From Candidatus Udaeobacter sp. (lineage in GTDB: Bacteria > Verrucomicrobiota > Verrucomicrobiia > Chthoniobacterales > UBA10450): 64,000 bases of DNA. Position 1 is the first letter of the stretch. Each line of letters opens with the position of its first letter. Below the pieces are notes generated by a model. That model did not search any database and was not told where the DNA came from. It saw nothing but the letters and a program-made list of their open reading frames with translations. The stretch lies in the NCBI GenBank assembly GCA_036269995.1, contig DATBDJ010000014.1, forward strand, positions 36,785 to 100,784, written 5' to 3'. Below are positions 11,659-50,252 of this stretch, piece by piece. The position numbers and the translations under genes were made by a program.

Positions 11659-11833
11659 GTTGCTTTATAGCTCCCTTCTAGAGACAGACTTGCAGGCATT
11701 TAACCACACAAATCCCCTGCGGTCGCAGCTTTATTTGCTTTTCGACAACCGGCAGTGTCGTTTGCTCGATTAAAGTCCAAACGAGGGTCGGTGGTCGATT
11801 CAGATTAGCACACTGAGCAGTTGGCTCGGGGTG

Positions 11834-11861
11834 TTGACACACTGGAACGCCCTGTTACTAT
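11834..11861 (+). promoter_or_regulatory. candidate sigma70-type promoter for hpnH-shc (TTGACA-N16-TACTAT)
   Basis: TTGACA at 11834-11839 and TACTAT at 11856-11861. The hpnH ATG (11872) lies only 10 nt past the -10 box, which would give a leaderless or near-leaderless mRNA. Confidence 0.4.
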
Positions 11862-11871
11862 CCTCGCTCCT

Positions 11872-18830: not shown

Positions 18831-18902
18831 GCCAGGGTAGCTCAGTGGTAGAGCAGGGGACTCATAAGCCCTTGGTCGGGAGTTCGAATCTCCCCCCTGG
18901 CA
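18831..18902 (+). tRNA. tRNA with CAT anticodon (elongator Met, or Ile2 if lysidinylated)
   Basis: 72-nt cloverleaf: acceptor GCCAGGG/CCCTGGC, D-stem GCTC/GAGC, anticodon loop CTCATAA, T-arm GGGAG-TTCGAAT-CTCCC. G1:C72 are paired, so it is not an initiator. No encoded CCA. Confidence 0.9.
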
Positions 18903-18941
18903 ATTAATTGGGCGTTGGAGGTTGGACGTTTACAGTTCGAC

Positions 18942-20465
18942 GTGGGCAAGGCGATCCTGGAAAAGCTTTATGCCGCCGGAAATTCCTACTGGCTGACGCG
19001 CTTTGTCATTCTGCGATTGCTCGGTTTCGTATACGCCGTTGCTTTTCTTGTTGCCGCACAGCAACTCGTCCCATTGATAGGCGAGCACGGCCTGACGCCG
19101 GCGCGTCAGTTTTTGGCGAGCATCGAAACGCAACTCGGCTCGCGAACTGCCGGAGTGTTGCGGGAACCCACTCTGTTTTGGCTTGGCGTTTCCGATCAGG
19201 GTCTATCAACGTTCGCGTGGATCGGACTGGCCCTCTCGCTTGTCGTGGTAGCCGGTTACGCGAACGCCATTATTCTCGGCGTTCTTTGGGCGATGTACAT
19301 GTCCATCGTTCACATCGGACAAATCTGGTACGGCTACGGTTGGGAGATTCAGCTGCTTGAAACCGGTTTCCTGGCGATCTTTCTCTGCCCACTGCTCGAT
19401 GGCCGGCCATTTCCAAAGTGCAGACCGCCGATTCTGGTCATATGGCTGCTTCGCTGGCTTGGCTTCCGCATCATGATCGGAGCAGGCCTGATCAAGTTGC
19501 GCGGCGACCCATGCTGGCGCGATCTCACGTGCCTTTACTATCACTATGAAACGCAGCCGATCCCCAGCCCGGTGAGCCGTTATCTGCATTTTGCGCCGCA
19601 CTGGGCCCACAAATTCGGGACTGCATGGAACCACTTCGTCGAACTCATAGTGCCATGGTTTTCATTCGGACCACGGCACGCGCGGCACGTCGCGGGTGTC
19701 GTGCTGGTAACATTCCAAATTTTTCTGATCATCAGCGGCAATCTTTCGTTCCTCAATTATCTCACCATCATTCCGTTCCTGGCCTGCTTCGACGACACCT
19801 TCCTGTGCCGCCTTTTACCGAGAGCTTTGGTCAGCCGCGCTAAACACGCAGCGCAGGAATCAGAACCGTCACGCATCAACAACAGTGTCGCAGTCGCGTT
19901 ATCCGTTGTGGTGATCTACCTCAGTGTCGCGCCGGTGCTCAACCTCATTTCCGGCCGACAAGTCATGAATACATCGTTCAACAGATTTGATCTGGTGAAC
20001 ACTTACGGCGCGTTCGGCTCTGTCGGGCGACAACGGGACGAAATAATTTTCGAAGGCACCCAGGATTCGATCATCACCGGCGACAGCAAATGGCAGGAGT
20101 ACCAATTCATAGCCAAACCGGGGAATCCCGATCGCAGGCCGCCGTTTGTCGCCCCGTACCAGCCGCGGATCGACTGGCAAATCTGGTTCGCCGCGATGGC
20201 TTCACCCGCCGATTATCCGTGGACACTGCATTTCGTCTGGAAACTTCTGCACAACGATCCGGGCACTCTCTCGCTTTTGGCGAACAATCCATTTCCCGAC
20301 GCACCGCCCCGTTACATTCGCGCGCGACTGTATCGGTATCAATTCGCGCCCCTTGGCGAGAAGGCGTGGTGGAAGCGCGAGGTGGTCGGCGAATGGCTGC
20401 CTGCGCTTTCCACAGAAAATGCCGAGTTCCGTGAGCTGCTCCGCGCGATGGAATGGATGGACTGA
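18942..20465 (+). CDS. lipase maturation factor (LMF1-like) family membrane protein
   Basis: Polytopic. SYWLTRFVILRLLGFVYAVAFL and ISGNLSFLNYLTIIPFLACFDD resemble LMF-family blocks as I recall them. There is no ATG near the 5' end. The ORF-track TTG at 18915 lies inside a repeat 13 nt after the tRNA, so I prefer the in-frame GTG at 18942, but the start is uncertain. Confidence 0.7.
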   Translation: MGKAILEKLYAAGNSYWLTRFVILRLLGFVYAVAFLVAAQQLVPLIGEHGLTPARQFLASIETQLGSRTAGVLREPTLFWLGVSDQGLSTFAWIGLALSLVVVAGYANAIILGVLWAMYMSIVHIGQIWYGYGWEIQLLETGFLAIFLCPLLDGRPFPKCRPPILVIWLLRWLGFRIMIGAGLIKLRGDPCWRDLTCLYYHYETQPIPSPVSRYLHFAPHWAHKFGTAWNHFVELIVPWFSFGPRHARHVAGVVLVTFQIFLIISGNLSFLNYLTIIPFLACFDDTFLCRLLPRALVSRAKHAAQESEPSRINNSVAVALSVVVIYLSVAPVLNLISGRQVMNTSFNRFDLVNTYGAFGSVGRQRDEIIFEGTQDSIITGDSKWQEYQFIAKPGNPDRRPPFVAPYQPRIDWQIWFAAMASPADYPWTLHFVWKLLHNDPGTLSLLANNPFPDAPPRYIRARLYRYQFAPLGEKAWWKREVVGEWLPALSTENAEFRELLRAMEWMD

Positions 20466-36587: not shown

Positions 36588-37286
36588 ATGAAAGTCTCAA
36601 TCGTAATCCCTTGTTACAATGAAAAAGATACGATCGAAAAAATCGTTCAAGCCGTTCGCAACGCCCCCGTTGAAAGCAAAGAGATCATTGTGGTGGACGA
36701 CTCTTCAGACGACGGGACGCAGGCAGTGCTGCAGGACCGGGTTTCGAATGTAGTCGATCGCATCATTTATCATCGGGTAAATCAAGGGAAGGGAGCGGCC
36801 TTACGAAGCGGATTTGCCGCAGCGACTGGTGAATTGATTCTCGTGCAAGATGCAGACCTCGAATACAGCCCCGAAGATTATCCGCTGCTTCTTGAGCCGC
36901 TCATCTCAGGCAAAGCCGACGCGGTTGTTGGCTCCCGTTTTATGGGCGGACGACCGCACAGGGTGCTTTTCTTCTGGCACATGGTTGGTAACAAATTTTT
37001 GACGCTGCTTTCGAACATGTTCACCAACATTAATCTGACCGACGTGGAGACAGGCTACAAAGCTTTCAGAGCCCCGCTAATTAAGTCGATTCGGATAGAG
37101 GAAGATCGCTTTGGAGTCGAACCGGAGATTATCGCCAAGCTCGCCCGCACCGGATGCAGAATTTACGAGGTAGGGATCTCGTACAGCGGACGCACTTACG
37201 CGGAGGGCAAGAAGATCAATTGGACAGATGGCTTTAGGGCGGTTTATGCCATCTTCAAATACAACCTGGAACGTTCGAAAAGATGA
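36588..37286 (+). CDS. family 2 glycosyltransferase, DPM1/ArnC/GtrB-like (putative polyprenyl-phosphate sugar synthase), soluble
   Basis: 232 aa from the ATG at 36588. VSIVIPCYNEKDTIEKIV, VVDDSSDDGT, VQDADLEYSPEDYP and TDVETGYKAF form the GT-A DxD pattern of the polyprenyl-P-sugar synthase subgroup. No TM segment. The ORF-track start at 36408 would overlap uvrA. Confidence 0.8.
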   Translation: MKVSIVIPCYNEKDTIEKIVQAVRNAPVESKEIIVVDDSSDDGTQAVLQDRVSNVVDRIIYHRVNQGKGAALRSGFAAATGELILVQDADLEYSPEDYPLLLEPLISGKADAVVGSRFMGGRPHRVLFFWHMVGNKFLTLLSNMFTNINLTDVETGYKAFRAPLIKSIRIEEDRFGVEPEIIAKLARTGCRIYEVGISYSGRTYAEGKKINWTDGFRAVYAIFKYNLERSKR

Positions 37287-38851
37287 AAGAGGCCTTGGTT
37301 CAAAACGCGACGGCGCCTTTGGCTGAAGATAGTTGCGCGTCGAACGCAATCGCCGGCCAAGCTTTGCTTGCAACCAGGTCGGATGTAAGGGCTGAGACTT
37401 GGGGTCCGGCGGCGCTTGAGCAAAGACGCGAACGCACCCGTGATCATTTGGCTAGGATTGCTACTCGCCGAGAAATCTGGATCAGTCGTAACAAGTACTA
37501 CTACGAACTGCTGAGCCGGCTATTTCGTTTTTTGGTCGAGCCACAGAAAAGCGTTCTCTCGGTTCGCTGCGGCATCGGGAATCTTTTGGACGTGGTGCGG
37601 CCAGCTAGAGCCAAAGGTGTCGATATCTGCGCTGAGATTGTGGAAATTGCGCAGCAACGAAATCAGACGTTCGAATTTGCGGTGGCGTTTCCAGACAAGG
37701 AAGAATTCCGGCACTGTTTCACCTCGGATGAAAAATTCGATTACATCCTGTTTAATGACATCGGCGACACCGTGGATGTACTCCAAGCCTTGCGCAATCT
37801 GGCGCCCCTTTGCCAGAGACACACCCGCGTCTTGATAACAACTTACAATCATCTGTGGGAACCCTTTGTTACTTTCGCCGAATGGCTGGGAATGAAGGTG
37901 CCGCGCATGGAGCAGAACTGGCTTTCCACGGCTGATATTCGAAATCTGCTGAAGCTCGCCGGGTTTGAGGCGCTTGAGACGCATCGAATTGTCCTTTTGC
38001 CGAAATACTTGCCCTTGTTGTCTGGCTTTCTTAATCGTTTTTGTGCGCGCCTGCCGTTTTTAAGCAAGCTCTGCATGACTCAGGTGGTCGTCGCGCGATT
38101 GTTGCCACGGCCGGTGCCGTCGGCACAGTTTTCCGTGTCCGTTGTCATTCCATGCAAGAATGAGAAAGGGAATGTCGAGGATGCTATCCGGCGCATTCCC
38201 GCGCTGGCGAGCCGGACAGAAATAATTTTCTGTGACGATCGCTCCACCGATGGAACGGCTGAAGAAGTCTTGCGGGTACAGTCAGTATACCCGCAGAAGA
38301 ACATTCGTCTTGAGCATGGGCCTGGTGTTTGTAAGTCGCGAAACGTATGGACCGGTTTCAATGCTGCCACAGGCGATGTTTTGATGATTCTCGATGCTGA
38401 CCTAACCACAATTCCCGAGGAACTGCCTTACTTCATCGATGTTATAGCTTCTGGACAGGCTGAGTTTGTGAATGGATCGCGCCTTATTTATCCAGTTCCA
38501 CAAGGGGCAATGAACGGAGCAAACATGCTGGGTAACAAATTCTTCAGCGTCGCGTTTACCTATCTGCTCGGGCAGAGGGTGAAAGACACTCTGTGCGGCA
38601 CAAAAGTTCTTTGGCGAAGCGACTGGGAGAGAATTAAACCAATGCTCGGGAGCTGGGGAACCGAAGATCGCTGGGGAGACTATGAACTGTTGTTTGGGGC
38701 TGCAAAATTGAACCTTAAGATTCTCGACTTACCTGTGCACTACCAGGAACGGATCTATGGTTCGACAAAGATGACCAAGATCTTTCGAAACGGAATTGTT
38801 ATGCTTAAGATGTGCTGGCATGGCTTTTTGAAGTTGAAACTCGGATACTAA
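37283..38851 (+). CDS. bifunctional class I methyltransferase-like domain + family 2 glycosyltransferase fusion
   Basis: 522 aa. The N-terminal ~260 aa have a Rossmann MT motif I-like segment, VLSVRCGIGNLLD. The C-terminal ~250 aa carry VSVVIPCKNEKGNV, FCDDRSTDGT, ILDADLTTIPEELP and DTLCGTKV (GT2). ATGA overlap with the upstream GT2. Confidence 0.8.
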   Translation: MKEALVQNATAPLAEDSCASNAIAGQALLATRSDVRAETWGPAALEQRRERTRDHLARIATRREIWISRNKYYYELLSRLFRFLVEPQKSVLSVRCGIGNLLDVVRPARAKGVDICAEIVEIAQQRNQTFEFAVAFPDKEEFRHCFTSDEKFDYILFNDIGDTVDVLQALRNLAPLCQRHTRVLITTYNHLWEPFVTFAEWLGMKVPRMEQNWLSTADIRNLLKLAGFEALETHRIVLLPKYLPLLSGFLNRFCARLPFLSKLCMTQVVVARLLPRPVPSAQFSVSVVIPCKNEKGNVEDAIRRIPALASRTEIIFCDDRSTDGTAEEVLRVQSVYPQKNIRLEHGPGVCKSRNVWTGFNAATGDVLMILDADLTTIPEELPYFIDVIASGQAEFVNGSRLIYPVPQGAMNGANMLGNKFFSVAFTYLLGQRVKDTLCGTKVLWRSDWERIKPMLGSWGTEDRWGDYELLFGAAKLNLKILDLPVHYQERIYGSTKMTKIFRNGIVMLKMCWHGFLKLKLGY

Positions 38852-38936
38852 CTCTTGTCAGCTCCTGGATGTTCAAACTGCGGACGCGGGCTGCCGGTTT
38901 CAATTCACAGTCAGTCCACTGGGTGAGAGTGTTCTA

Positions 38937-39659
38937 GTGCAAGACCGCATTGCCAAAGAAATTCAACACGGCAGGTTTCTGGCCAAACACGGGGCAGGGA
39001 AGATTTGGAATTGGGAAAGTCCAGCCGGCAAACTGCGCTGGGCGAGGCGCGTAAAGATGCTAAGCGAGCATCTCGGACCGGGAATGAGTGTTCTCGAATT
39101 GGGCTGCGGCACAGGGTATTTTACTCGTGAACTGGCTCGCTCTGGAGCGGAAATTGTCGCGATTGACGTCTCACCAGAGCTCCTGGAAACCGCGAGGGTG
39201 AGTTCTTCTGCGCCGAATGTTCGTTACGAAATCCAGAACGCCTATGATCTAAGCTATACTGATGCCGCTTTTGATTCCGTTGTCGGCAGCTCGGTCTTAC
39301 ATCATCTAGAAATCCAGCAGGCCTTACGCGAAATTTTCCGGGTTTTGAAGCCCGGCGGCAGAATTTCATTTACAGAACCGAACATGCTGAACCCGCAGAT
39401 CGCGCTGCAGAAGAATGTACCTTGGATTAAACGAAAACTTGGCGACTCACCGGATGAGACTGCTTTTTTTCGATGGTCGCTCCGGCGCCTTCTTGAGATA
39501 ACGGGCTATCGTGAGGTTCGAATTACCCCGTTCGATTTCCTGCATCCCAAAACGCCTAATCAGCTAGTTGATCGGTTGAACTCCGTCGGGCGATTCCTCG
39601 AAAGCGTGCCGGTAATGGCTGAGTTCGCCGGCTCCCTTTACGTTCGCGCCGTAAAATGA
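38937..39659 (+). CDS. class I SAM-dependent methyltransferase
   Basis: 240 aa with a GTG start. Motif I VLELGCGTGYFTRELA, and a post-I acidic residue in VAIDVS. Confidence 0.85.
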   Translation: MQDRIAKEIQHGRFLAKHGAGKIWNWESPAGKLRWARRVKMLSEHLGPGMSVLELGCGTGYFTRELARSGAEIVAIDVSPELLETARVSSSAPNVRYEIQNAYDLSYTDAAFDSVVGSSVLHHLEIQQALREIFRVLKPGGRISFTEPNMLNPQIALQKNVPWIKRKLGDSPDETAFFRWSLRRLLEITGYREVRITPFDFLHPKTPNQLVDRLNSVGRFLESVPVMAEFAGSLYVRAVK

Positions 39660-40435
39660 GCACGATCACTATGCATAACGAGGAAGCGAAAGATCGCGCG
39701 GCAACGTTGCGTAATCGGGCACACCTCGGCGCGAATCAGAATCTTCTTTTTTGGTATCGCGAACTTTACTGCGATCAATTCAAGGATTTTCCAAACCCGT
39801 CGGCGCTGTCGATCTTAGAAATAGGAAGCGGCACTTCGCCCCTTAAACAATTTCTCTCAAACGTAGTAACCAGTGACGTGCTTAATCTGGGGTACCTCGA
39901 TCTTGTGTTTGACTGCCATGAAATCGACAAGTTGGACGCGATAGAGGACAACACTCTTGACGTTATCACACTCACGAATGTGTTGCATCACCTGAAGAGT
40001 CCGATTTTGTTTCTAAGTCGCGCGGCCAGTAAGTTGAAATCCGGCGGCAAAGTTATTGCGACCGAGCCTTTTTTTTCCGACGTATCAACTCTCATATTTA
40101 AGTATCTGCATCACGAACCGGTCGATTTCAGAATTTCCCACCCCGAACTTAGCCATATGCAGGGACCACTGTCATCAGCCAACATTGCATTGCCGTGGCT
40201 AATTTTCTGCCGGACACCCGAATGGCTCCAGCCGCTGAATGATTACTTCGATCTCACGAGAATTTCCACGAGACCGTTCAGTGCCGTCTCGTACATGGTT
40301 ACTGGTGGAATATCGCACAGGTTGCCAGTTCCCGCTTTTCTCTATCGCATGTTATTTCGCGTGGACCTCGCCCTTAGTCGTTGGTGTCCGAGTGTCTGCG
40401 CGAGTTTCTTTACCGTAACTCTGACACGACGCTGA
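39656..40435 (+). CDS. class I SAM-dependent methyltransferase (divergent)
   Basis: 259 aa. ILEIGSGTSPL is motif I, and VITLTNVLHHL follows. ATGA overlap with the previous gene. Confidence 0.7.
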   Translation: MSTITMHNEEAKDRAATLRNRAHLGANQNLLFWYRELYCDQFKDFPNPSALSILEIGSGTSPLKQFLSNVVTSDVLNLGYLDLVFDCHEIDKLDAIEDNTLDVITLTNVLHHLKSPILFLSRAASKLKSGGKVIATEPFFSDVSTLIFKYLHHEPVDFRISHPELSHMQGPLSSANIALPWLIFCRTPEWLQPLNDYFDLTRISTRPFSAVSYMVTGGISHRLPVPAFLYRMLFRVDLALSRWCPSVCASFFTVTLTRR

Positions 40436-41172
40436 TGTTCGCGATGTCCCTTCTTCGCGGAGTCGGGAATAAGGCTTACCAATATACCTTTCCTGTCTAC
40501 CGCCTTTGTTATCGCGCTTTCAAAGCTTACACTGATCGTGCGGAGCGGCTACTGCTGAGGAGCATTTTGTCGGAGGGAGCGGTCGTGGTGGACGCGGGTG
40601 CGAACATTGGGGTGTATTCGCAGTTTCTTTCCCGCTGTGTTGGTCCGACCGGCGTTGTTCATTCCTTTGAACCTTCGCCCGAAAATTTTAAGCGCCTGCA
40701 GTCTGCTACCCGCAACCTTGCAAACGTCCGCCTGTCTCAAGCTGCGGTTGGAGAATGCAGCGGAAGGTCCAACCTGTACGTTTCGGATCAACTAAATGTG
40801 GATCACCGCACCTACGCGACCCGCGGCGATTCGCGCCCCACTCTCCAAATCGATATCATAGCGCTCGATGATTATTTTGAGCCGGGCGAGCGCATTGATC
40901 TGATCAAAATGGATATTCAAGGATACGAGCTTTACGGCTTGCGAGGCACTAACCGTGTTTTGGCTGACAACCCCGCAGCAAAGTTGCTCCTGGAATTTTG
41001 GCCTTACGGCCTCAAACAGGCTGGAGCGAACTGGCGTGAATTGATTGATTTGCTGCGAACTAAAAACAGGTCGGTTTTCCAGATAACAAATTATGGGCTC
41101 GTCCCGTTCCGCTCCGATTCAGTTAGGGTCAGCCCGGAGTGGTACGTGAATCTTTTCGCCTTGTCGAAATAA
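40435..41172 (+). CDS. FkbM family methyltransferase
   Basis: 245 aa from the ATG at 40435, which shares one nt with the preceding TGA. VVDAGANIGVYS...VHSFEPSPENFKRL matches the FkbM signature. Confidence 0.8.
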   Translation: MFAMSLLRGVGNKAYQYTFPVYRLCYRAFKAYTDRAERLLLRSILSEGAVVVDAGANIGVYSQFLSRCVGPTGVVHSFEPSPENFKRLQSATRNLANVRLSQAAVGECSGRSNLYVSDQLNVDHRTYATRGDSRPTLQIDIIALDDYFEPGERIDLIKMDIQGYELYGLRGTNRVLADNPAAKLLLEFWPYGLKQAGANWRELIDLLRTKNRSVFQITNYGLVPFRSDSVRVSPEWYVNLFALSK

Positions 41173-41230
41173 CATCTGTCACCCTGTGACTGGCATTCGC
41201 CGCAATCGAGGTTTCGGACGCGTCGATGGT

Positions 41231-43123
41231 TCACTGCCTGCCTGGTAAGAGCAAAACCAGCCCGCCAGCTTCGAGAACGCGATGCCAGCCGGGATCAATC
41301 GATTGAAGCGTCGCCAAGACTCGCTGGCTTTGAGATTCTGGAACTGCAACGGCGTTTGCGCGATTGGTTTCGATGACCTGACGAAATTGCGGTTCGAACA
41401 GTTGAAGCCGTTTAAAACGGTCGGCATTGTCGCCCTCGATAAAAACCTGCGCCTGGCGGCGGAGTTTGCCTTCCGCCGGATTGCCTGCGTTGGTAAAATA
41501 GTGAGTGACAAGGCGGGGCGCCACGACTTTCATTGTGGGAAATAGTAGCGGTAACTCGCAACCAGCCGTCCACGTTGGCACGAGTAGTTTACTCTGATCG
41601 ATATACTTGCCGGCGGCCAGACCGAAATCCGTGTTCTCTTTAACTAACTGATATTCGAGAGGCGTTTTCCATGCAGCCTGTCGGCTAATTGGCGTGATCG
41701 AGAGTGCACGATAGGTGCAAAAGAAAGTAACTACGATAGCCAGTAGCGCCGCCACAAGTAGGGGCCGCCGTCCCACAGGAGTAACCGCCGTCTTTCCGAA
41801 CAACCGCGGACCTGCTGTGGGCAACATGGCGCAAAGCAATGGTAGCGGCACCAAATAATTCAACCGAAAGTAACACAAGGCCATGATGTGTCTCATCCAC
41901 CAAGGCGCAAGCAGGGGGTTCAAGCAAAAAAGCCACACCGCGCAAGCATAAAAGAAGAGAAAAAGACCGATCTTCCCGCGGACGACGATGAGCGGCACAG
42001 CAGTCATCAGCAGAATATTTCGGACGTACCCTGCTGGTCCGCCCACGAAAAACGTCATGGCTTGGCCCCATGGCATGTATGTTGACCCGTACATGCTTAT
42101 ATCGATTGGCTTCGGAATTATGTTAACAAGCAGCAAAACTAATATTCCGACCGGATAGACGAGTGGTATTATCAGGAGCAGCCCGCGAGCGATGTGTTTC
42201 CGCAAGTATTCGGCTCCCCCATTTTCAAATAGCTGAGTCGTAAAAAAGGCCAGCCAGGAGCACCCAATTACCGCTGGGATCAAATAAAGAGCCGTATTAG
42301 CTACACCAACACTAGCGATGCTCAAAAGAGTTAGCCACACGAGATCACTTCGGTTGCCGCGACTCAAAAATCGATAGCTGATGGCAAGACCGAGCGGCAA
42401 TAACAAAATGAACACGATCGATCGCCCTTCCCAGAGATAGCCGGCAGCCATCCCAAAAGACCAGTAGCGGGAAACAGTTCCAATCACCGCCGGTCCAGGA
42501 TTGTCCAATAGCAAAAACGCCACGGCGAGTAACGTACCGACGGCGGCTGGCCAGCGAGACAATCCGAATTGTCGGACGCACCAGTAAAAGACAAAGGGGA
42601 TCAAAAATGCGCTCAGCGCATGGCCGATGATTTGATAAAAGTATAAAGGATCGATACCAAGGTAGTGACTGAGGATCCCCAAGAGCATCTCGTAGCTGGT
42701 CGCCAGATGAACCGGAGAGAATGCAGCGGCGTCGAGATCGACGCTCGTTTCGCGCAGGTAGATGGGCTGCTTAAGATCCAGCAACTGGGACAGAACTCTA
42801 TGGAAATAGACGACATCATCTTGATTCGGCCGCCGCACGAAAAGGACTGTAGTTGCACATGCAACGCCCACGACCACAAGAAGGATGTGAGGCAAATGGA
42901 ACCGATAGTATTTGCCAGGCATCGCGTTTGTCTTTTTCCACAAACGCGCAAGCAAAAAGAAACCGCCGATGACCAAAGCTAGAAAGCACCATGTAATCGT
43001 TGCCGCCGGCCATCTTACGACAAGCACAAACTGGTAGGCGAGGGTCCAAAATGCGAATAGCGCGACTGGCAGAAGCACGATGTCAGCGGCTCGAGATTCG
43101 GCAGGCTTTTCGGAAATCAGCAT
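41231..43123 (-). CDS. polytopic membrane protein, GT-C-like glycosyltransferase candidate (1 of 4)
   Basis: 630 aa. The first ~470 aa contain about 12 hydrophobic segments, with an acidic pair in the loop RRPNQDDVVYFH (aa 102-103). The last ~150 aa form a soluble C-terminal domain. The family was not recognised by eye. Confidence 0.55.
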   Translation of the reverse strand: MLISEKPAESRAADIVLLPVALFAFWTLAYQFVLVVRWPAATITWCFLALVIGGFFLLARLWKKTNAMPGKYYRFHLPHILLVVVGVACATTVLFVRRPNQDDVVYFHRVLSQLLDLKQPIYLRETSVDLDAAAFSPVHLATSYEMLLGILSHYLGIDPLYFYQIIGHALSAFLIPFVFYWCVRQFGLSRWPAAVGTLLAVAFLLLDNPGPAVIGTVSRYWSFGMAAGYLWEGRSIVFILLLPLGLAISYRFLSRGNRSDLVWLTLLSIASVGVANTALYLIPAVIGCSWLAFFTTQLFENGGAEYLRKHIARGLLLIIPLVYPVGILVLLLVNIIPKPIDISMYGSTYMPWGQAMTFFVGGPAGYVRNILLMTAVPLIVVRGKIGLFLFFYACAVWLFCLNPLLAPWWMRHIMALCYFRLNYLVPLPLLCAMLPTAGPRLFGKTAVTPVGRRPLLVAALLAIVVTFFCTYRALSITPISRQAAWKTPLEYQLVKENTDFGLAAGKYIDQSKLLVPTWTAGCELPLLFPTMKVVAPRLVTHYFTNAGNPAEGKLRRQAQVFIEGDNADRFKRLQLFEPQFRQVIETNRANAVAVPESQSQRVLATLQSIDPGWHRVLEAGGLVLLLPGRQ

Positions 43124-43187
43124 TGTCGGATCACACTTTGAGTTTTATTAGCTTGATGTGATAACCGACGTTCCAACGAGCTGGTGG

Positions 43188-44870
43188 TCAACTGGGAATT
43201 CTTGCCCGAAAAAGCAGAATAGTTGGGAACGGGTACGTCATATCTTGAGGAAAACGCATCAGCCCGAACTCGTGTCCCCAAATCCGTACTGGCACGCGAT
43301 AGCTTTTTGCATATTGAAATTTTCCCTGTGCCTCCACCTGCCGAATAGATGCGTTCATCTGCTCAGGGCTAATTTCAGTGGGGAATCCTACCAACAAGAA
43401 GTCAGCATTTTCTTCAGCGTTCTGAAACTGGACGGCTACTGTCTCGCTCTCTAATGGCTTGGCTCCCGGCATTGCGGTATAAAAGGACGGTCCGAATTGC
43501 AAAACGCCGATTTTCGCCGGACCCGCACCAATCAATGTTTGAAGATCCTCCCGAACAATTTCGCGAGCGTCCTTGCGCTGCATGGCCCCAATGTATGCAA
43601 GGTCGAAAATAAAGGATGGCACAAAGATCAGCAGGAGCGCGACGCCCAAAACAATGGTTGTCGTCCGTTTGTTTTGCACCGCCAGTTGTATGTCGCCGCA
43701 GACAATTCCAACAAGTACACAGAACCCAGGAAACAGAATCAGGGTTATTCGCGCGAAATAAGGACCCAGGTACCCCTTGCCCATCAGGTAAAGATACAGG
43801 ACTGAAAAAATCAGTATTGGAGCGGAAAGGCCGTAAAGGTTGCGCCTAAAGAGAAGATACAATATTGCGCAGTAGGGGGCCAACCAAAGCACGGGATACG
43901 TCGCTAACGGAATCACGTACGTAATATACCTCCAAATAACCGATAGATTTAGCACCTGACTCCTGCTGAACTCATGCAACGACGCATATTTTAGGGTTTC
44001 ATTGGTAATTGCCTTTATAACGCTCGCTGAATCTAAGAAGAGCATCGGATGACCGACGAACAGGCCAATTCCAAAGCCGAAACCAATGAACCAAACCTGG
44101 GTGGCGACAAAACTTCTTGCCCGCTCTGCAAATCGCGCGGCAGTGCCTGGTGACTCGTTACTGCCGTCAAATAGCAAATGCAGGCAGGGAATCACGACAA
44201 TGATTCCAACAGGATACCGTGTCGCTGCTCCTAAACCAGAAATTAGACCGACAAGAACAAGCAGGTGCCACGATTGAGATTTCCGAAGCTTGAATGACAA
44301 CCAAATGACTAAAATGCACAATAGATTGCTGAGGATGTGAGTCCTCATAAAATGAGCATAGATCACCTGCATTGGCAGAACTGCGTAACAAAGCGCCCCG
44401 ACTAGGGATGGGTAGAACCACTGGGTCGCTTCTCGAATCGCGAGGAACACAACCACGACTGTGCAGAGGTCGAACAGGACAGACATCCATCGACAGATGT
44501 ACAAAAGCACAGACTGGTCCCGTGTATTCCCTGGCTCGCCCCCATAACGGGCTTTGTTGCCAAAAAGCTTCAATATCGCTTGTGGCATAGCCCACACATA
44601 ATAATTGAACGTCCCCTCAAAGTATGCTCCTGGGGCTTTAATATGACCTGTTAGTAAATCCAGTTGGCGGACGCCTCTAAGGCTTACAAACTCGTCAGGC
44701 TGAAAATTCAGGTCGTGTCCGTACCCGCTGTTGAGACCCCACGCCAAGCCGGCTACTCGGAAAAAGGCTGCCAACAAGAGCACTCCTGCGAATAACGCGG
44801 GTCGAAGTGCTTTTGCCGTAAATCGACGTCGCGCCGTAGCATCTCCGGAAAAAGCTGTCGATCGCATCAC
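43188..44870 (-). CDS. GT-C glycosyltransferase, ArnT/PMT_2-like (2 of 4)
   Basis: 560 aa. TM1 is followed by NFQPDEFVSL (D59-E60) in the classic first-loop position, then more than 10 TM segments and a ~130-aa C-terminal soluble domain. The ORF starts GTG-ATG, and the ATG at 44867 is equally possible. Confidence 0.7.
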   Translation of the reverse strand: MMRSTAFSGDATARRRFTAKALRPALFAGVLLLAAFFRVAGLAWGLNSGYGHDLNFQPDEFVSLRGVRQLDLLTGHIKAPGAYFEGTFNYYVWAMPQAILKLFGNKARYGGEPGNTRDQSVLLYICRWMSVLFDLCTVVVVFLAIREATQWFYPSLVGALCYAVLPMQVIYAHFMRTHILSNLLCILVIWLSFKLRKSQSWHLLVLVGLISGLGAATRYPVGIIVVIPCLHLLFDGSNESPGTAARFAERARSFVATQVWFIGFGFGIGLFVGHPMLFLDSASVIKAITNETLKYASLHEFSRSQVLNLSVIWRYITYVIPLATYPVLWLAPYCAILYLLFRRNLYGLSAPILIFSVLYLYLMGKGYLGPYFARITLILFPGFCVLVGIVCGDIQLAVQNKRTTTIVLGVALLLIFVPSFIFDLAYIGAMQRKDAREIVREDLQTLIGAGPAKIGVLQFGPSFYTAMPGAKPLESETVAVQFQNAEENADFLLVGFPTEISPEQMNASIRQVEAQGKFQYAKSYRVPVRIWGHEFGLMRFPQDMTYPFPTILLFRARIPS

Positions 44871-46525
44871 TCGGACGCCGTTGATGCCTGATCAGAAGCG
44901 ACGGCAGTAAGCGTTAGGATTGCCCCACTATCTTGAGCGCTGTTTAGAGTGTGCCACTCCCACCCGACAACCTTTGGCAGGCGGAATTGGTTGGTGGCGG
45001 CTTCGTCTTGGGATGTAAATAGCGCGTAAACCGGGAGCGACTGCTGCAAGCCATGTTCGACAAGGGCCATCGCCTGTGGCCGATGATAATGCCAGGTGTC
45101 GCTCCACTTGTAATGATGCTTCCCATCGATCGGAGCTGCCACGAATGAAGGTCCCAAGAGCGCGTTCAAGTAGACGGGATCAATGTCACTAAGCACGATG
45201 CCAGGTTGCCGGCTTACAGCTTTGGCGAAGTTTCGTTGGGCGACAAACTGGATAGACTGACGAGGTGGAGTCGTAAAATGAAGAGCGTCCCACGCTTGAA
45301 ATCGGCCGATTCCATGCGCGTTATAGCCGGAGCGCGATGGGTAGCCGAGACAGGCTGCGGCGAATAGAAGGAAAGGAGCCAGACTTGCAATGAGTCGTTT
45401 GCCAGCAAAGACGTTATTTGCAGCCCACATAATGGGCAGAACAGCGATCGCTACAACAAGAATTAAAAGTGGCAGATACAAACGTCCATCTGCGCCAAAG
45501 AGATAGCACACTGTCGCCCCAAAAGAACTCAATCCAGATAAGAAGGCACAGCAAACGAACCAACTGAGCCGGATCAAAAGGAGACCGGCGCAAATCAAAA
45601 GGACGAAGGCCGGCACAAAAGACGTGCCCGTCCCGAAAATATTGGCAGCATCATATCCGTGTGGCTGCAGTGTAAATTGCTGCCACAACATGCCGACATT
45701 GTTGATGACATAAAAAACTGAAAACAAAAGGTGTTGCGTACTAAGATACGACGCCCAGAAGTCGTAACCGGTTTTGAATGGTGAACGGAACTGGATCGTG
45801 TTTAACACGAGCACAGGGCTGGCGGCCAAAACAAACACAACGCATACCGCAGCGCAACGGAGCAACAGACGCCAGCGACGCCCTTGTACTGGAACCACGG
45901 CTATCGCCAGCAACAATGGAGCGAAAAAAAGCGACTGGAGCCGCACGTTTACTGAAAGCCCTACAAAAAGCGCCGCTAAACAGATGTTACACCAGCGTCC
46001 TTGCCTAACACCCAGATAGGAAAACATAAATGCCAAAACGATAAGCAGTGAGGCACTTACCTCGCTAAGTGACGAACGACAAAACGTAAAGAAACCGGGC
46101 AGCGTAGCCAATAACAACGTCGCAACCCCCCCTGCCAACGGCATCGCTAGATACGCGTAAAAAACAAACACTGCCAAAAGCAACAGAAGTCCCATCGTTT
46201 GGCTCGTACGAAGCGGCGCCAGCACGGCATCCGCCGCCGGCAGAATCTTCAGCCACGGAAGCATCAACACAGGGTACCCAAAAGGGTATCTTGATGGCAA
46301 TTTCTCATAGGCGATTTGTATGAAAGGCCAGCCATGTCGTTCCAGAGCTGCTGCCTGCGCGAAATATTCCGTGGCATCCGGATGTGGAGCAAGATTGAGC
46401 AGGGTTGTCTTGCTGTAATCAATCCTAAGCACCGCGAAATAATAAAACGTCAAGGCGCAAACAAAGAGTAGTGTGCCAATTAAGAACGGCGGAACAATAA
46501 GCTTCGCCTTGAGGCCTTCTCTCAT
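44867..46525 (-). CDS. GT-C glycosyltransferase, ArnT/PMT_2-like (3 of 4)
   Basis: 552 aa. TM1 is followed by APHPDATEYFAQAAAL (D50, E53; a D-x-x-E-Y loop motif), then more than 10 TM segments and a ~170-aa C-terminal soluble domain. The stop overlaps the start of the next gene. Confidence 0.7.
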   Translation of the reverse strand: MREGLKAKLIVPPFLIGTLLFVCALTFYYFAVLRIDYSKTTLLNLAPHPDATEYFAQAAALERHGWPFIQIAYEKLPSRYPFGYPVLMLPWLKILPAADAVLAPLRTSQTMGLLLLLAVFVFYAYLAMPLAGGVATLLLATLPGFFTFCRSSLSEVSASLLIVLAFMFSYLGVRQGRWCNICLAALFVGLSVNVRLQSLFFAPLLLAIAVVPVQGRRWRLLLRCAAVCVVFVLAASPVLVLNTIQFRSPFKTGYDFWASYLSTQHLLFSVFYVINNVGMLWQQFTLQPHGYDAANIFGTGTSFVPAFVLLICAGLLLIRLSWFVCCAFLSGLSSFGATVCYLFGADGRLYLPLLILVVAIAVLPIMWAANNVFAGKRLIASLAPFLLFAAACLGYPSRSGYNAHGIGRFQAWDALHFTTPPRQSIQFVAQRNFAKAVSRQPGIVLSDIDPVYLNALLGPSFVAAPIDGKHHYKWSDTWHYHRPQAMALVEHGLQQSLPVYALFTSQDEAATNQFRLPKVVGWEWHTLNSAQDSGAILTLTAVASDQASTASE

Positions 46526-46560
46526 AAGTACGGAACGGACGAAGATTGATCGAGCAGCAC

Positions 46561-48582
46561 CTACTCCAGGACGCGCTCGAGCCGCCGGCCAGGTTTAGTA
46601 TCGTTTCTTAAAAAGATAACGCTATTCGCTTCGCCGCAGCGGTACTCCTTGTAGCCGCATTGTCTCAGGCGTGTCCCAAATTTCTGATAGAACCAGTCCC
46701 ACCGATTCTGCTCCTGGTATGGTGGAATAATGACGGCTGAGATATCCAACCGAGTAAGATACGGAGGACAGTTGTCGCTATCGTTAAGCTCGTGAAACAG
46801 ATCTTGATATCGCGCTGGCCCAAAATAGTCCCCTACACTGACGATGTTTGCTATTTTTCGAAAGTAAAAATGTAGCCGCTCAGTTCTCAAAACAAGAACG
46901 TGTGTCTGCTTCTTGTGTTCGGATGCAAGCGTCTCAATCACAGCCTCGCTGGCGGGATAACCAGAGAGATTCTTCTCCAGATAACGTTCTGGGTCCCCGC
47001 CAAGGCGGAACAAATCAAATGTGCTCGCATAATAATCACGGTAAAATCCTAGCCACCCATGCTTTGAGTTGGGTACTAGGAGAGTTGGACTGGGAATGAT
47101 CAGCGCCCCACAGAATGCGATCGTAGCCGCACCAAGCGTCAATGTTGCCAGCGGCGAACGCCAAACTGCGTTTGCGCGGGCGTAGACATATGAAACAGCG
47201 ACGCCTATCCAAGCCGCGAGCACGGGGTACCAGTGAAGCGAATATCTCCCCAAGGAGCTGAAAAACCACGGAATTGCCAGGTATGTAGCTGCAGCAGATA
47301 AATAAGTGAACTGGCGCGGCCACTGCCATCGCTCCCGCAAAAATGGCTGCGCGGCGACAAACAAAACTGGCCCATACAGCAGTATTATCATTGCGCTTAT
47401 ACCCCATTCTCTGAAGTCTTTTGACGCGGGATCCGCGAAGAATTGGAATGGCAAGAATAGTAGATGCCATGGCTTTTGCTGAGTAATCGTATCACCGGTG
47501 TAAAGCTGCGCGTCCGCTTTCGTAAAGACCGGGTCAGGGCGGTTGAAATACAAATTGAAAAGAGGTGGGGCGGGGTCATGGGCTTCAAGTAGGTTTCGCG
47601 CATACCAAGGGAGGCTAAGTGCGACCAAAAATACACAGAGCAGCGCGATGTATCGTGGTCGCAGGCGCCGCATGGACGCGACACACAGCGAGACAATAAA
47701 AAACGGCAGGTGACCGATGAGTGTAAGCTTCATCCCTGCGCAAAAACCGGCGATCACGACAAGCTCGCGTTGGAATCCGTGATGTGATGACGTTCTATAG
47801 ACGCAGAGAACAGAGAGAAGAAGAAAAAGTCCAATAGGCACATCCACGTAAGCAGTGTTCAAATAGCGAAGGAAGACCGGAGACAGGGCTACGGCTAGAG
47901 GGATTAAAAATTGCTGGGGATAAAAACGGCTCCCAACATGGATATTGGCAGCAAAATCAGCTTTAACCGGACCGAAGAAGGCCACAATTCCCAAGCAGGT
48001 AAGTAACCCACAGAGCCAGGTCAGAAAATGACAATAGTCTCCTAAACTCAGAATAAATAAGGCACTGTATAGAAGTAGAAAGTTATTTGCGTAATACGGA
48101 AAACGCAGAAAGGGATCAACATAGATGTGGCCCGCATTGGCCCAATCGACGGCATATGCCAAATGATAGGCCACTGAATCGAAAAGGGTTGGGGGAAGAA
48201 CCGCCGGTATTCCCAATACCAGAAACACTACGTAAATGAAAAATGCCGAGCTCGTCCAAGCCTTGAGGAAGCGGCTAGACGTCGTTCGCCAGAACGACGA
48301 TGACAGCCAGCTATCGCCTTTCAGCTGCCAAAATAGAATTCCTTCAGCTAATATTGTTCCCAACAATCCGAATCCATTAAGTAAGTGTGCGAACCCCAGG
48401 AATAACAATGCGAATCCAAATAACGCCATTCCCGCCACGGATGTAATGACAAGGTCGGAAAGCGAAATGCCATCCGCTTTATCGGAAGTCTTTGGCCTAA
48501 ACAACTGGCCGGTCGTAAAGAAGTAAAACCATGCAAAATGAGCTGCTGCCAGGCCGACGAAATAGCTTTGAAGAATTTGCAT
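46561..48582 (-). CDS. polytopic membrane protein, GT-C-like glycosyltransferase candidate (4 of 4)
   Basis: 673 aa with about 14 hydrophobic segments. Loop motif PPTLFDSVAYHLAYAVDW (D135) and a ~190-aa C-terminal soluble domain. Confidence 0.55.
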   Translation of the reverse strand: MQILQSYFVGLAAAHFAWFYFFTTGQLFRPKTSDKADGISLSDLVITSVAGMALFGFALLFLGFAHLLNGFGLLGTILAEGILFWQLKGDSWLSSSFWRTTSSRFLKAWTSSAFFIYVVFLVLGIPAVLPPTLFDSVAYHLAYAVDWANAGHIYVDPFLRFPYYANNFLLLYSALFILSLGDYCHFLTWLCGLLTCLGIVAFFGPVKADFAANIHVGSRFYPQQFLIPLAVALSPVFLRYLNTAYVDVPIGLFLLLSVLCVYRTSSHHGFQRELVVIAGFCAGMKLTLIGHLPFFIVSLCVASMRRLRPRYIALLCVFLVALSLPWYARNLLEAHDPAPPLFNLYFNRPDPVFTKADAQLYTGDTITQQKPWHLLFLPFQFFADPASKDFREWGISAMIILLYGPVLFVAAQPFLRERWQWPRQFTYLSAAATYLAIPWFFSSLGRYSLHWYPVLAAWIGVAVSYVYARANAVWRSPLATLTLGAATIAFCGALIIPSPTLLVPNSKHGWLGFYRDYYASTFDLFRLGGDPERYLEKNLSGYPASEAVIETLASEHKKQTHVLVLRTERLHFYFRKIANIVSVGDYFGPARYQDLFHELNDSDNCPPYLTRLDISAVIIPPYQEQNRWDWFYQKFGTRLRQCGYKEYRCGEANSVIFLRNDTKPGRRLERVLE

Positions 48583-48750
48583 CTACCGGCGCGTAATCGG
48601 TCTTACCTATGTGGCTAGCAAGGTATCAATCAGGTGAAGAGGCTTTTGCTGAGGAAGAAACTCGACATTATGCGCAATCAGCAAGCGACTCATCGGTCGA
48701 ACAGCGAAGCACTGGCGGGAGCGATTCCAGTGGAATAGACTGTCATCAAC

Positions 48751-49815
48751 CTAGTCGAGATAATTCTGCAGGAATAACTGCATGATGTGCTGCGCTCCGG
48801 CGCCTCTGACGTGTCTCAGATCATCCTCCCACACAGCGCCGCGATCAGAGTTTTGCACGATTTCGTAACTTGGAAAGTAATCCACGTTGGGATGTGCGCT
48901 GGCCCACTCCTGAGCCACTGCTCGCAAAAGCGATTTGGCCCAAGTGTTGGCCACCACAATATCCATGCTTGAAAAGGTGTTCATCAAAGGAACGGGAGAA
49001 ACCGTGACTACAATGTGAAAGTCGGAATGTCCATGGAGAGACAACAACATGTATATGGCTTCCAGATTAGCGAGGTTGTGAGCAAAATTAGTTAGATGAA
49101 ATTCGTACCGCCCTGGTTCAGTCTTGAACAAAGATGGAATAGGAGTGCAATTTAGAAATACGTCTGCCTGAACGTCGCGCCAAATTTCTGCAAGCCCGAG
49201 CGTGACGATCACTGCGCGACAGCTCTGGATGCGCTTTGTTACCAGTTGCATCAGCGCGCGACGCTCCAAGGTCTCCTCCAACCCCACGAAGTTTAAGGTG
49301 GGGGTCGTATGTGGGTCATACCACGTTATGTTTGTTAATGGCACAATGGACTCCCGAGGGAATTCTGCGTCTGGATCAAGCGCCCACCGAAGTTCGTTCA
49401 GTATTGAATACGTGTTGTACTTATTGGTGAATCCGAGACCGGACCTTTCTCTGTTAGCCGACTGAAGCTTCGCAAATTCGGGCGCTGCGCTTTCAACAGC
49501 TAGTTTGCGTCCTGCGAGTGCGTTTTCGAGCCCGCGCGCAAAACACGACCCGATCGCATAGAATTTATCGTCTCGGCGAAGTTTGAACTTTGGATTGATT
49601 TGAGGTGTAAACCAGGTGTCACGCAATCGCTGGAAAGCGTATTTACGAGGCTGATCAGTGAGCCCAACACCGTCCTTGTACCAAGTTCTTGCGGCGTTGG
49701 TCGCATAATTCTTCATCGCCTCAGCGGCGGCCATGACATATGGGGATTTGGTCAAGGCCGAACGATTGCCTGGTGGAGCGACAACCGTCCTTTCGTTAAA
49801 AAATGCCCCAGACAT
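48751..49815 (-). CDS. GSCFA family protein
   Basis: 354 aa. It contains the eponymous motif in FYAIGSCFARGLENAL at the position expected for a GDSL/SGNH-like nucleophile block. Confidence 0.75.
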   Translation of the reverse strand: MSGAFFNERTVVAPPGNRSALTKSPYVMAAAEAMKNYATNAARTWYKDGVGLTDQPRKYAFQRLRDTWFTPQINPKFKLRRDDKFYAIGSCFARGLENALAGRKLAVESAAPEFAKLQSANRERSGLGFTNKYNTYSILNELRWALDPDAEFPRESIVPLTNITWYDPHTTPTLNFVGLEETLERRALMQLVTKRIQSCRAVIVTLGLAEIWRDVQADVFLNCTPIPSLFKTEPGRYEFHLTNFAHNLANLEAIYMLLSLHGHSDFHIVVTVSPVPLMNTFSSMDIVVANTWAKSLLRAVAQEWASAHPNVDYFPSYEIVQNSDRGAVWEDDLRHVRGAGAQHIMQLFLQNYLD

Positions 49816-49835
49816 GCCTACAGATTCTCACCAAT

Positions 49836-50252
49836 TTATCGCTGCGCGAGCAGATAAATCGCTATCAATGTGAGCAGAAAGTAGGGAACAAGGACCGCTG
49901 CTCCAGCGTACTCTTTTGCCATTCGCTGGCCGAAGAAAAGCGAAATAACCGCCACCGCAGAAATGACTGCACCATAGTATGCGACGGTTGAATCGTGCAA
50001 GAACATCACCGCCAGGCAGCCAATAGCACTCAGCGCGCCTGCTGCGAGTTCGAGAATCGTGATTACCGTCACCAACGCCGGTACAAATCCGGCTAATGGA
50101 CTTTTGGCAAAATGTCCCTTTAGCCATTCAAGGTTTCCACCGCGGTCGATGATCTTATCAATTCCCGATTGAAGAAAAAGAATCGCCAGAAAGGCGGATG
50201 CGAGAATCTGCATCAGATAAATTGCTTGGCTGAACGTGTGCGAAGCGGGCAT
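49836..50252 (-). CDS. DoxX family membrane protein
   Basis: 138 aa with 4 hydrophobic segments. FLAILFLQSGIDKI is the DoxX-like first-helix pattern. Confidence 0.6.
   Translation of the reverse strand: MPASHTFSQAIYLMQILASAFLAILFLQSGIDKIIDRGGNLEWLKGHFAKSPLAGFVPALVTVITILELAAGALSAIGCLAVMFLHDSTVAYYGAVISAVAVISLFFGQRMAKEYAGAAVLVPYFLLTLIAIYLLAQR

Follow-up and report, generated by a model that had tools for sequence, protein, structure and literature searches.

A candidate hypervariable periplasmic glycosylation island with GT-C-like proteins, GT2 enzymes and methyltransferases in Candidatus Udaeobacter

A stretch of 64,000 nucleotides from the genome of Candidatus Udaeobacter sp. (GCA_036269995.1, contig DATBDJ010000014.1, forward strand, 36,785 to 100,784) was investigated for a gene island located between its positions 36588 and 50252. 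The genus is placed in the Chthoniobacterales, phylum Verrucomicrobiota. We call this whole stretch the window and count positions from its first letter. The island contains eleven open reading frames (ORFs) in two arms facing each other: a plus-strand arm with glycosyltransferases of family 2 (GT2) and methyltransferases, and a minus-strand arm with four large polytopic proteins, here M1 to M4, that resemble glycosyltransferases of the GT-C class. An earlier note on this DNA had described the same eleven ORFs with their overlaps, their gaps and the 58 nt between the convergent ends, all of which were reproduced by our ORF map. These are real genes and not chance ORFs, since homologues exist for each one: hundreds to thousands for M1, M4 and a 138-aa membrane protein in a protein database search made for these three, and tblastn matches within related loci for the remaining eight.

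The plus arm opens with GT2a (36588 to 37286), a soluble GT2 protein of the DPM1/AglJ/ArnC type (Glycos_transf_2, 113.9 bits). Its start is the ATG at 36588, giving 232 aa, the length found in its relatives. It overlaps through an ATGA junction with the MT-GT2 fusion (37283 to 38851), in which an N-terminal class I S-adenosylmethionine (SAM) methyltransferase domain (residues ~70-235) precedes a DPM1-like GT2 domain (~283-508). After a gap of 85 nt come MT1 (38937 to 39659), a class I SAM methyltransferase (Methyltransf_11/25, 89.6 bits), and, across a second ATGA, MT2 (39656 to 40435), a divergent member of the same class (Methyltransf_23, 37.8 bits). The last gene, joined to MT2 by TGATG, encodes an FkbM-family methyltransferase (40435 to 41172; Methyltransf_21, 59.3 bits; TIGR01444, 87.3 bits) and starts at the ATG at 40435, where the ORF tool instead gives a TTG at 40381. 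On the minus strand, the genes are read from the 138-aa membrane protein (49836 to 50252; 4-5 transmembrane (TM) segments) through a GSCFA-family protein of the SGNH hydrolase superfamily (48751 to 49815; no TM segment) to M4 (46561 to 48582; 673 aa), M3 (44867 to 46525; 552 aa), M2 (43188 to 44870; 560 aa) and M1 (41231 to 43123; 630 aa), with successive spacings of 20, 168, 35, -4 and 64 nt.

The G+C content of the island (0.49-0.53) is below that of its flanks (0.54-0.58), which carry housekeeping genes: uvrA and a tetratricopeptide repeat (TPR) protein gene on one side, and genes for an SDF-family symporter, a CN-hydrolase, a cyclophilin (PPIase) and carB on the other. A scan for sigma-70 promoters and terminators gave fewer promoter-like sites than shuffled sequence, and an Rfam scan of the window returned two tRNAs and nothing else. 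The 11 locus proteins and the immediate flanks include no initiating phosphoglycosyltransferase, Wzx, Wzy or Wzz protein, ABC exporter or nucleotide-sugar synthesis gene. The earlier note had reported these absences along with that of a GtrA/ArnEF-type flippase, and its list holds in Pfam and NCBIfam searches of the locus proteins. The island does not belong with the Wzx/Wzy- or ABC-type O-antigen loci.

The four membrane proteins have 9-14 predicted TM segments each in a hydropathy scan. M2 belongs to the PMT_2 family of ArnT/PMT-like GT-C enzymes, with 34.9 bits against a gathering cut-off of 26.1, and has an invariant P58-D59-E60-F61 motif after TM1. M3 is a probable GT-C of a distant PMT_2 type: 15 of the 20 members of its family match PMT_2 (best E 6.9e-5), D50 in the motif PDATEY is invariant, and in NCBIfam there is a weak match to the model of the Leptospira putative glycosyltransferase LA_3751/2 (E 7e-6). 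M4 itself has no match in the Pfam copy used, and its relatives carry PF27383 ("SF2091"). An AlphaFold model of M4, built from 44 homologues (pLDDT 77.6, pTM 0.84), is a helical bundle. All ten of its top Foldseek matches in the PDB belong to the GT-C class (AftA, ALG9, ArnT, PglB, DPY19, ALG12 and STT3), with probability 1.0, E-values of 1e-4 to 8e-3 and TM-scores of 0.38-0.51, and transporters score below 0.25. As modelled, M4 is clearly a GT-C-fold protein; its residues D135, D146 and D156 are invariant.

M1 also gave a helical bundle (pLDDT 68, pTM 0.74), with AftA, STT3A, EmbB and Pmt1/2 as the best Foldseek matches of the model, which is suggestive of a GT-C-like fold. Its family is small, with 679 matches at E <=1e-3 in a scan of 1.84 billion representatives. 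DUF6077 (PF19554) is matched by 33 of 39 aligned relatives, and M1 was placed in this family through them because the copy in the window falls below DUF6077 in Pfam. DUF6077 is not annotated as a glycosyltransferase family, and we know of no description of glycosyltransferase activity for DUF6077 or "SF2091" proteins; a literature search on DUF6077, SF2091 and the pairing of GT-C with DUF2079 found nothing relevant. In relatives of 19-29% identity, D102 of M1 is invariant and D103 conserved in at least 90%, both directly after a TM helix. An acidic pair of this sort is what one expects in the first loop of GT-C enzymes. In all four proteins, the acidic motif comes shortly after a TM helix close to the N-terminus, and from charge distribution and helix order these loops would face the periplasm.

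Two other readings of the membrane proteins were rejected. O-antigen ligases or polymerases are absent from the best 50 Foldseek matches of the M4 and M1 models, in which those above chance are GT-C, and the transporter reading was dropped on the same Foldseek rankings. What separates M1 to M4 from transporters and ligases is the PMT_2 score of M2 above its cut-off, the PMT_2 matches across the M3 family and the GT-C best matches of M4 and M1. The earlier claim of four GT-C-like proteins stands for M2 by family and for M4 by its fold model, and for M1 and M3 on weaker evidence.

In the plus arm, residues 1-226 of GT2a align to residues 23-250 of the Dol-P-Man synthase (DPMS) of P. furiosus (5mlz; E 1.2e-22) with a conserved DAD motif. 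ArnC ranks after it (E 1e-15), followed by GpgS, chondroitin synthase and other GT2s at 1e-8 or worse. For the GT2 domain of MT-GT2 (Glycos_transf_2, 73 bits), residues 283-402 align to 5mlz (E 2e-14), with ArnC next, and residues 285-508 match the AglJ model. AglJ is the top NCBIfam model for both domains; for GT2a, a haloarchaeal Dol-P-hexose transferase and PpgS are also among the best. Both domains are thus nearest to dolichyl- and undecaprenyl-phosphate sugar synthases, as proposed earlier under the description DPM1/ArnC-like, and GT2a is predicted from these matches to be a polyprenyl-phosphate sugar synthase. They are closer to such enzymes than to processive synthases, with 5mlz matched over the full catalytic domain (E 1e-22), then ArnC, and AglJ on top in NCBIfam.

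The fusion, the two class I methyltransferases and the FkbM enzyme, named earlier from the ORFs alone, were all confirmed by Pfam and NCBIfam; the N-terminal domain of MT-GT2 has 42.4 bits with Methyltransf_23. A glycine-rich SAM motif is kept in all four methyltransferase domains (GxGxG in MT1), and the plus-arm proteins have zero TM segments in the hydropathy scan. Since the methyltransferases are SAM-dependent and soluble, methylation would have to take place in the cytoplasm. The fusion of a methyltransferase to a GT2 suggests methylation of a freshly made lipid-linked sugar, coupled to its loading. In two of the related loci described below (L043 and L008), MT1 and MT2 form one ORF of 512-514 aa, which suggests that they act jointly.

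The GSCFA protein has 145 bits with PF08885 against a cut-off of 25, and its serine motif G89-S90-C91-F92-A93 is invariant in 24 relatives, as is N131; score and motif bear out the earlier family call. The GSCFA family lies within the SGNH superfamily and has no functionally characterised member (PMC9487903). The protein may work on the glycan, or on a precursor of it, as an acyl-esterase or acyl-transferase.

A scan of GTDB representative genomes with an M1 profile gave 44 loci, mostly from soil metagenome-assembled genomes (MAGs) of Verrucomicrobia/Udaeobacter, which were analysed by tblastn and ORF clustering. Loci that extend 5 kb or more downstream of M1, 32 in number, were taken as informative. 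The site of the island is the same across genomes, between uvrA and a flank with the 138-aa, SDF, CN-hydrolase, PPIase and carB genes. The two arms, whose complete separation in related genomes would have counted against the earlier reading, do co-occur there: a convergent FkbM gene lies next to M1 in 24 of the 32 informative loci, a class I methyltransferase is found in 23 and the MT-GT2 fusion in 21. In 8 of the 32, M1 occurs without the FkbM/MT arm. M1 is the membrane component most widely kept in the island; about 20 loci have the M3-M2 pair and about 28 have GSCFA.

The remaining content varies. Elsewhere the membrane-protein slots are filled by DUF2079, PMT plus PMT_2, YfhO-like, DUF6541/Agl23-like and unassigned polytopic proteins. 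Variant loci add a full-length GtrB/PgfS/ArnC-type GT2 (216 bits) and an AglJ-type GT2 (202 bits), and they also carry further methyltransferases and an epimerase. A set of GT-C, polyprenyl-phosphate-type GT2 and methyltransferase genes recurs across these variable loci. Relative to the window, flank genes reach a median identity of 80-89%, the GT-Cs 62-70%, GT2a, MT-GT2, MT1 and MT2 76-88% (82% for MT1) and FkbM 69%. In the nearest relative (L043; DATBDI010000108.1, Ca. Udaeobacter), the flanks are 93-94% identical while GSCFA, M3 and M2 have 65-71%; M4 is missing, and a different polytopic protein (cluster c15) lies between MT-GT2 and GT2a. This contrast between flank and cassette identity, together with the gene swap, indicates mosaic cassette replacement inside the island.

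Several related loci show particular arrangements. M4, an accessory cassette, is paired with GSCFA in L001, L002 and L029. In L002 (contig_2974 of ERZ25039552, 1617-11995), the M4 homologue (58% identity) is divergent from a longer GSCFA protein of 444 aa, and the neighbours encode a 1079-aa GT2/GT4 protein, three proteins with sulfotransferase domains and a Methyltransf_24 protein; the M4-GSCFA pair is therefore also present in a sulfation-type glycan locus. In L017, L019 and L033, a methyltransferase (c34) and a full-length PgfS/ArnC-type GT2 (c35) accompany a polytopic protein of ~600 aa with no family match (c20). These three look like a self-contained GT-C, methyltransferase and GT2 cassette inserted between M1 and FkbM. 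A second locus type was found in L007, L010, L024, L036 and L041, with the M1 homologue beyond carB and beside a malate/lactate dehydrogenase gene; after M1, the FkbM/MT arm gives way to two other methyltransferases, a sulfatase and a further polytopic protein. Four short contigs (L013, L020, L025 and L028) carry a Verrucomicrobia-type locus with 60-79% identity and are filed under Limnocylindria, Alphaproteobacteria, Pyrinomonadaceae and Scandinavium MAGs, labels that are likely due to mis-binning.

The 138-aa gene behaves differently from the cassettes, with a median identity of 77% in related loci. It stays beside the SDF gene in L036, where M1 sits elsewhere. Owing to this flank-level conservation and SDF linkage, it was rejected as a cassette member and is probably a conserved flank gene. 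The earlier note had called it DoxX, which did not hold: no match to DoxX, GtrA, DAGK or any other family was found in Pfam (E <=10) or NCBIfam (E <=0.1). Over 8000 homologues exist in the database, one of them 100% identical (VH227_02380, from a Candidatus Udaeobacter sp. MAG); some NCBI records name them "DoxX family protein" and JGI "diacylglycerol kinase", and both names were rejected as unverified. In 15 related loci (e.g. L034, 5797-8079), an S8 subtilase with a PA domain (~760 aa) lies between the SDF and 138-aa genes; it is absent from the window.

What was observed is which genes are present, their folds and families, how the arms are linked and how the cassettes vary. On this base, we consider it reasonably probable that the region represents one allele of a hypervariable island for envelope glycosylation in Candidatus Udaeobacter and related soil Verrucomicrobiota, combining polyprenyl-phosphate sugar synthases and periplasmic GT-C enzymes with cytoplasmic O-methylation. 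By family, GT2a and the GT2 domain of MT-GT2 would take sugar off a nucleotide sugar and load it onto polyprenyl phosphate at the inner membrane's cytoplasmic face. The four SAM-dependent domains would O-methylate the sugar while nucleotide-linked or, more probably, once lipid-linked. The lipid-linked sugar would then be flipped to the periplasmic face, a step in which the 138-aa membrane protein might conceivably act as flippase. There, M1 to M4, whose chemistry we infer from fold and family, would transfer sugars to one or more acceptors, which could be lipopolysaccharide (LPS), another envelope glycan or protein. The GSCFA enzyme might add or remove an acyl group. Between genomes, the exchange of GT-C cassettes along with GT2 and methyltransferase genes would diversify the surface. 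The earlier reading of the locus as donor synthesis, methylation and periplasmic transfer is in this way supported at the level of families, its biochemical chain remaining conditional.

Several results weigh against this interpretation. The assignment of the membrane proteins as GT-Cs has to accommodate that M1 to M4 show no similarity to each other by BLASTP or profile-profile hhalign, so that they are not paralogues, and that sequence and profile searches against PDB chains, including one with a deep M1 alignment, gave no match for any of them. M3 itself stays below the Pfam threshold for PMT_2 (16.3 bits, E 0.012), and the match of M1 to AftA is modest (E 0.045 at probability 1.0, TM-score ~0.4, from a model of pLDDT 68). 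For the donor synthases, AglJ scores of 132 bits (GT2a) and 72 bits (MT-GT2) compare with a cut-off of 325, and neither GT2 reaches any characterised equivalog cut-off (AglJ, ArnC, PpgS or PgfS). The hydropathy scan found no TM segment in GT2a or MT-GT2, which have just a short amphipathic C-terminal stretch, whereas GtrB, ArnC and archaeal DPMS have TM or interface segments. Human DPM1 and the catalytic domain of mycobacterial Ppm1 likewise have no TM helices, and such an anchor is therefore not universal in the polyprenyl-phosphate GT2 clade.

The composition of the locus counts on the same side. When the locus proteins were searched with Pfam and NCBIfam, no flippase turned up, whether of GtrA, SMR/ArnEF, MATE or Wzx type. 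The locus also holds no acceptor, nucleotide-sugar synthesis gene or initiating enzyme, and the product therefore cannot be named. To our knowledge, bacteria offer no direct precedent for methylating a lipid-linked monosaccharide donor. Only 12 of the 32 informative loci contain GT2a, and M4 is confined to 5 loci, a number that takes in the window and also counts one contig twice (L001 and L029). For this reason, the earlier proposal of two GT2 donors and up to four transfer steps keeps its enzyme families but does not describe a fixed pathway; it corresponds to one allele of a hypervariable island.

A more specific version can be proposed, although we regard it as speculative: a periplasmic assembly line made of GT-Cs alone that would build or decorate an envelope glycan, using polyprenyl-phosphate monosaccharides already methylated by the MT-GT2 protein as a "load-and-methylate" fusion, in which exchangeable GT-C, GT2 and methyltransferase cassettes would generate serotype-like diversity at the surface of a bacterium that ranks among the most abundant uncultured ones in soil.

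Three other explanations were considered, and each is less well supported than envelope glycosylation by polyprenyl-phosphate synthases and GT-Cs. It is unlikely that the arms are functionally separate, with the plus arm making a cytoplasmic methylated glycoconjugate or small molecule, as in the mycobacterial polymethylated polysaccharides from a GpgS-type glycosyltransferase, and the minus arm using donors made elsewhere. Such a split would suit soluble GT2s that also match GpgS-type enzymes, more weakly (E 1e-8), methyltransferases able to act in the cytoplasm only, and the missing FkbM/MT arm beside M1 in 8 of the 32 informative loci. However, the arms are adjacent in the other 24, variant loci bring together GT-C, GT2 and methyltransferase genes once more, from different families, and DPMS and ArnC match 7-14 orders of magnitude better than GpgS.

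Quite unlikely is a route like the haloarchaeal Agl pathway, where GT2a would prime polyprenyl phosphate, MT-GT2 and the methyltransferases would build a short methylated, monophosphate-linked oligosaccharide in the cytoplasm, and one or more GT-Cs would transfer it en bloc to protein or lipid before the others add single sugars. The Agl pathway does join AglJ, the methyltransferase AglP, AglS as a Dol-P-Man GT-C and AglB as oligosaccharyltransferase (PMC3871713). In NCBIfam, both GT2 domains match AglJ best, but at scores well under the AglJ cut-off. Foldseek does return STT3 and PglB for the M4 and M1 models, but no STT3/PglB sequence signature was found in the M proteins by Pfam and PDB sequence searches. 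The GT2 domain of MT-GT2 is DPMS-like and not that of an elongating glycosyltransferase.

Very unlikely is conventional cytoplasmic assembly, with GT2s elongating a chain on undecaprenyl diphosphate (Und-PP), the methyltransferase-glycosyltransferase capping it like the WsaE/WbdD terminators and the membrane proteins acting as Wzy/WaaL-like polymerase or ligase: MT-GT2 fusions are known among chain-terminating enzymes, and the low G+C and variable content recall O-antigen loci, but the initiating phosphoglycosyltransferase, Wzx, Wzz and ABC exporter are missing from the locus, the best 50 Foldseek matches include no ligase or polymerase, those above chance being GT-C, and the GT2s are nearest to DPMS, ArnC and AglJ.

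Envelope glycosylation of the kind proposed here has a known frame, in which a polyprenyl-phosphate sugar synthase, a flippase and a GT-C form an established "three-component" periplasmic route (PMC11127046). The earlier description of a candidate undescribed system is right about the unusual gene set, while the concept extends this known type of glycosylation. The island would share with the Gtr systems of Shigella and Salmonella and with the pentofuranose system of Citrobacter (GT136) a synthase and a GT-C that modify an envelope glycan outside the cytoplasm, and a variable GT-C component that diversifies the surface (PMC11127046). One accessory GT2 of related loci is of the full-length GtrB/PgfS/ArnC type. 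On the other hand, the island has no GtrA, SMR or MATE flippase gene, has four GT-Cs of four unrelated families instead of one, and its GT2s have no TM anchors. Nothing there corresponds to its four methyltransferase domains, of which one is fused to a GT2. The island is chromosomal, at a fixed site and not on a prophage.

In actinobacteria, synthases of the Ppm1/PpgS type feed multiple GT-Cs (PimE, MptA-C, Emb/Aft and Rv3630-type). The likeness would lie in a soluble or TM-less DPM1-like domain supplying several GT-Cs for a periplasmic glycan, and M4 and M1 have AftA and EmbB among their best structural matches, as GT2a has PpgS among its best matches. The island belongs to a different phylum with a probably Gram-negative envelope, and its M proteins have no detectable sequence similarity to mycobacterial GT-Cs; its methyltransferases are integrated, and its genes are clustered in a variable island instead of being dispersed. 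A Gram-negative example is the Rgt system of Rhizobium, in which the bactoprenyl-phosphate-GalA synthase RgtE and the GT-Cs RgtA-D/F act on LPS core and lipid A, so that one ArnC-like GT2 serves several GT-Cs decorating LPS in the periplasm (PMC7663294). This likeness is one of layout, homology to Rgt proteins not being claimed, and the island differs by having methylation built in.

The Agl system of Haloferax volcanii (AglJ, AglD, AglP, AglS and AglB) would also share features: GT2s of the AglJ type charge a monophosphate polyprenol, the lipid-linked sugar is a substrate of a SAM methyltransferase, and GT-Cs do the external transfers (PMC3871713). The island differs in being bacterial, in having no AglB/STT3 signature and in GT2 scores under the equivalog cut-offs. 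The streptococcal Pgf system, in which the GT2 PgfS acts with PgfM1 and PgfM2, has in common a GtrB-type GT2 with two large polytopic glycosyltransferases, and the accessory GT2 c35 of related loci matches PgfS over its full length (216 bits). The match of a YfhO-like protein of related loci (c32) to PgfM2 is at chance level (13.3 bits, E 0.017, cut-off 1500) and therefore gives no support to the likeness. In contrast to Pgf, which is Gram-positive and has no methyltransferases, the GT2s in the window are AglJ/DPMS-like and not PgfS-like. Four unrelated GT-Cs, TM-less synthases, integrated methyltransferases of which one is fused to a GT2, and the absence of a flippase in the locus are what distinguishes the island when it is compared with the Gtr, Rgt, Ppm1 and Agl systems.

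Outside the island, two other features of the window were observed. On the plus strand (11821-15191), the genes of a radical-SAM plus DUF3463 protein (HpnH-like, 11821-13173) and of a squalene-hopene cyclase (13170-15191) share 4 nt; they are a hopanoid biosynthesis pair ~20 kb from the island. Directly downstream of a tRNA-Met, a plus-strand gene (18831-20465) encodes a bacterial protein homologous to LMF1, the lipase maturation factor of eukaryotes, with both Pfam domains (218 and 160 bits).

A literature search on Udaeobacter glycans and glycosyltransferases found nothing relevant. If our interpretation is true, the island would provide the first functional context, as GT-Cs, for the DUF6077 and PF27383 "SF2091" membrane families, and likewise a first one for the function-less GSCFA branch of SGNH hydrolases. 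The recurring set of GT-C, GT2 and methyltransferase genes predicts O-methylated sugars delivered through lipid-linked donors. For Candidatus Udaeobacter, a dominant uncultured soil lineage, the island points to a strain-variable surface glycan, on which phages and predators could plausibly exert selection.

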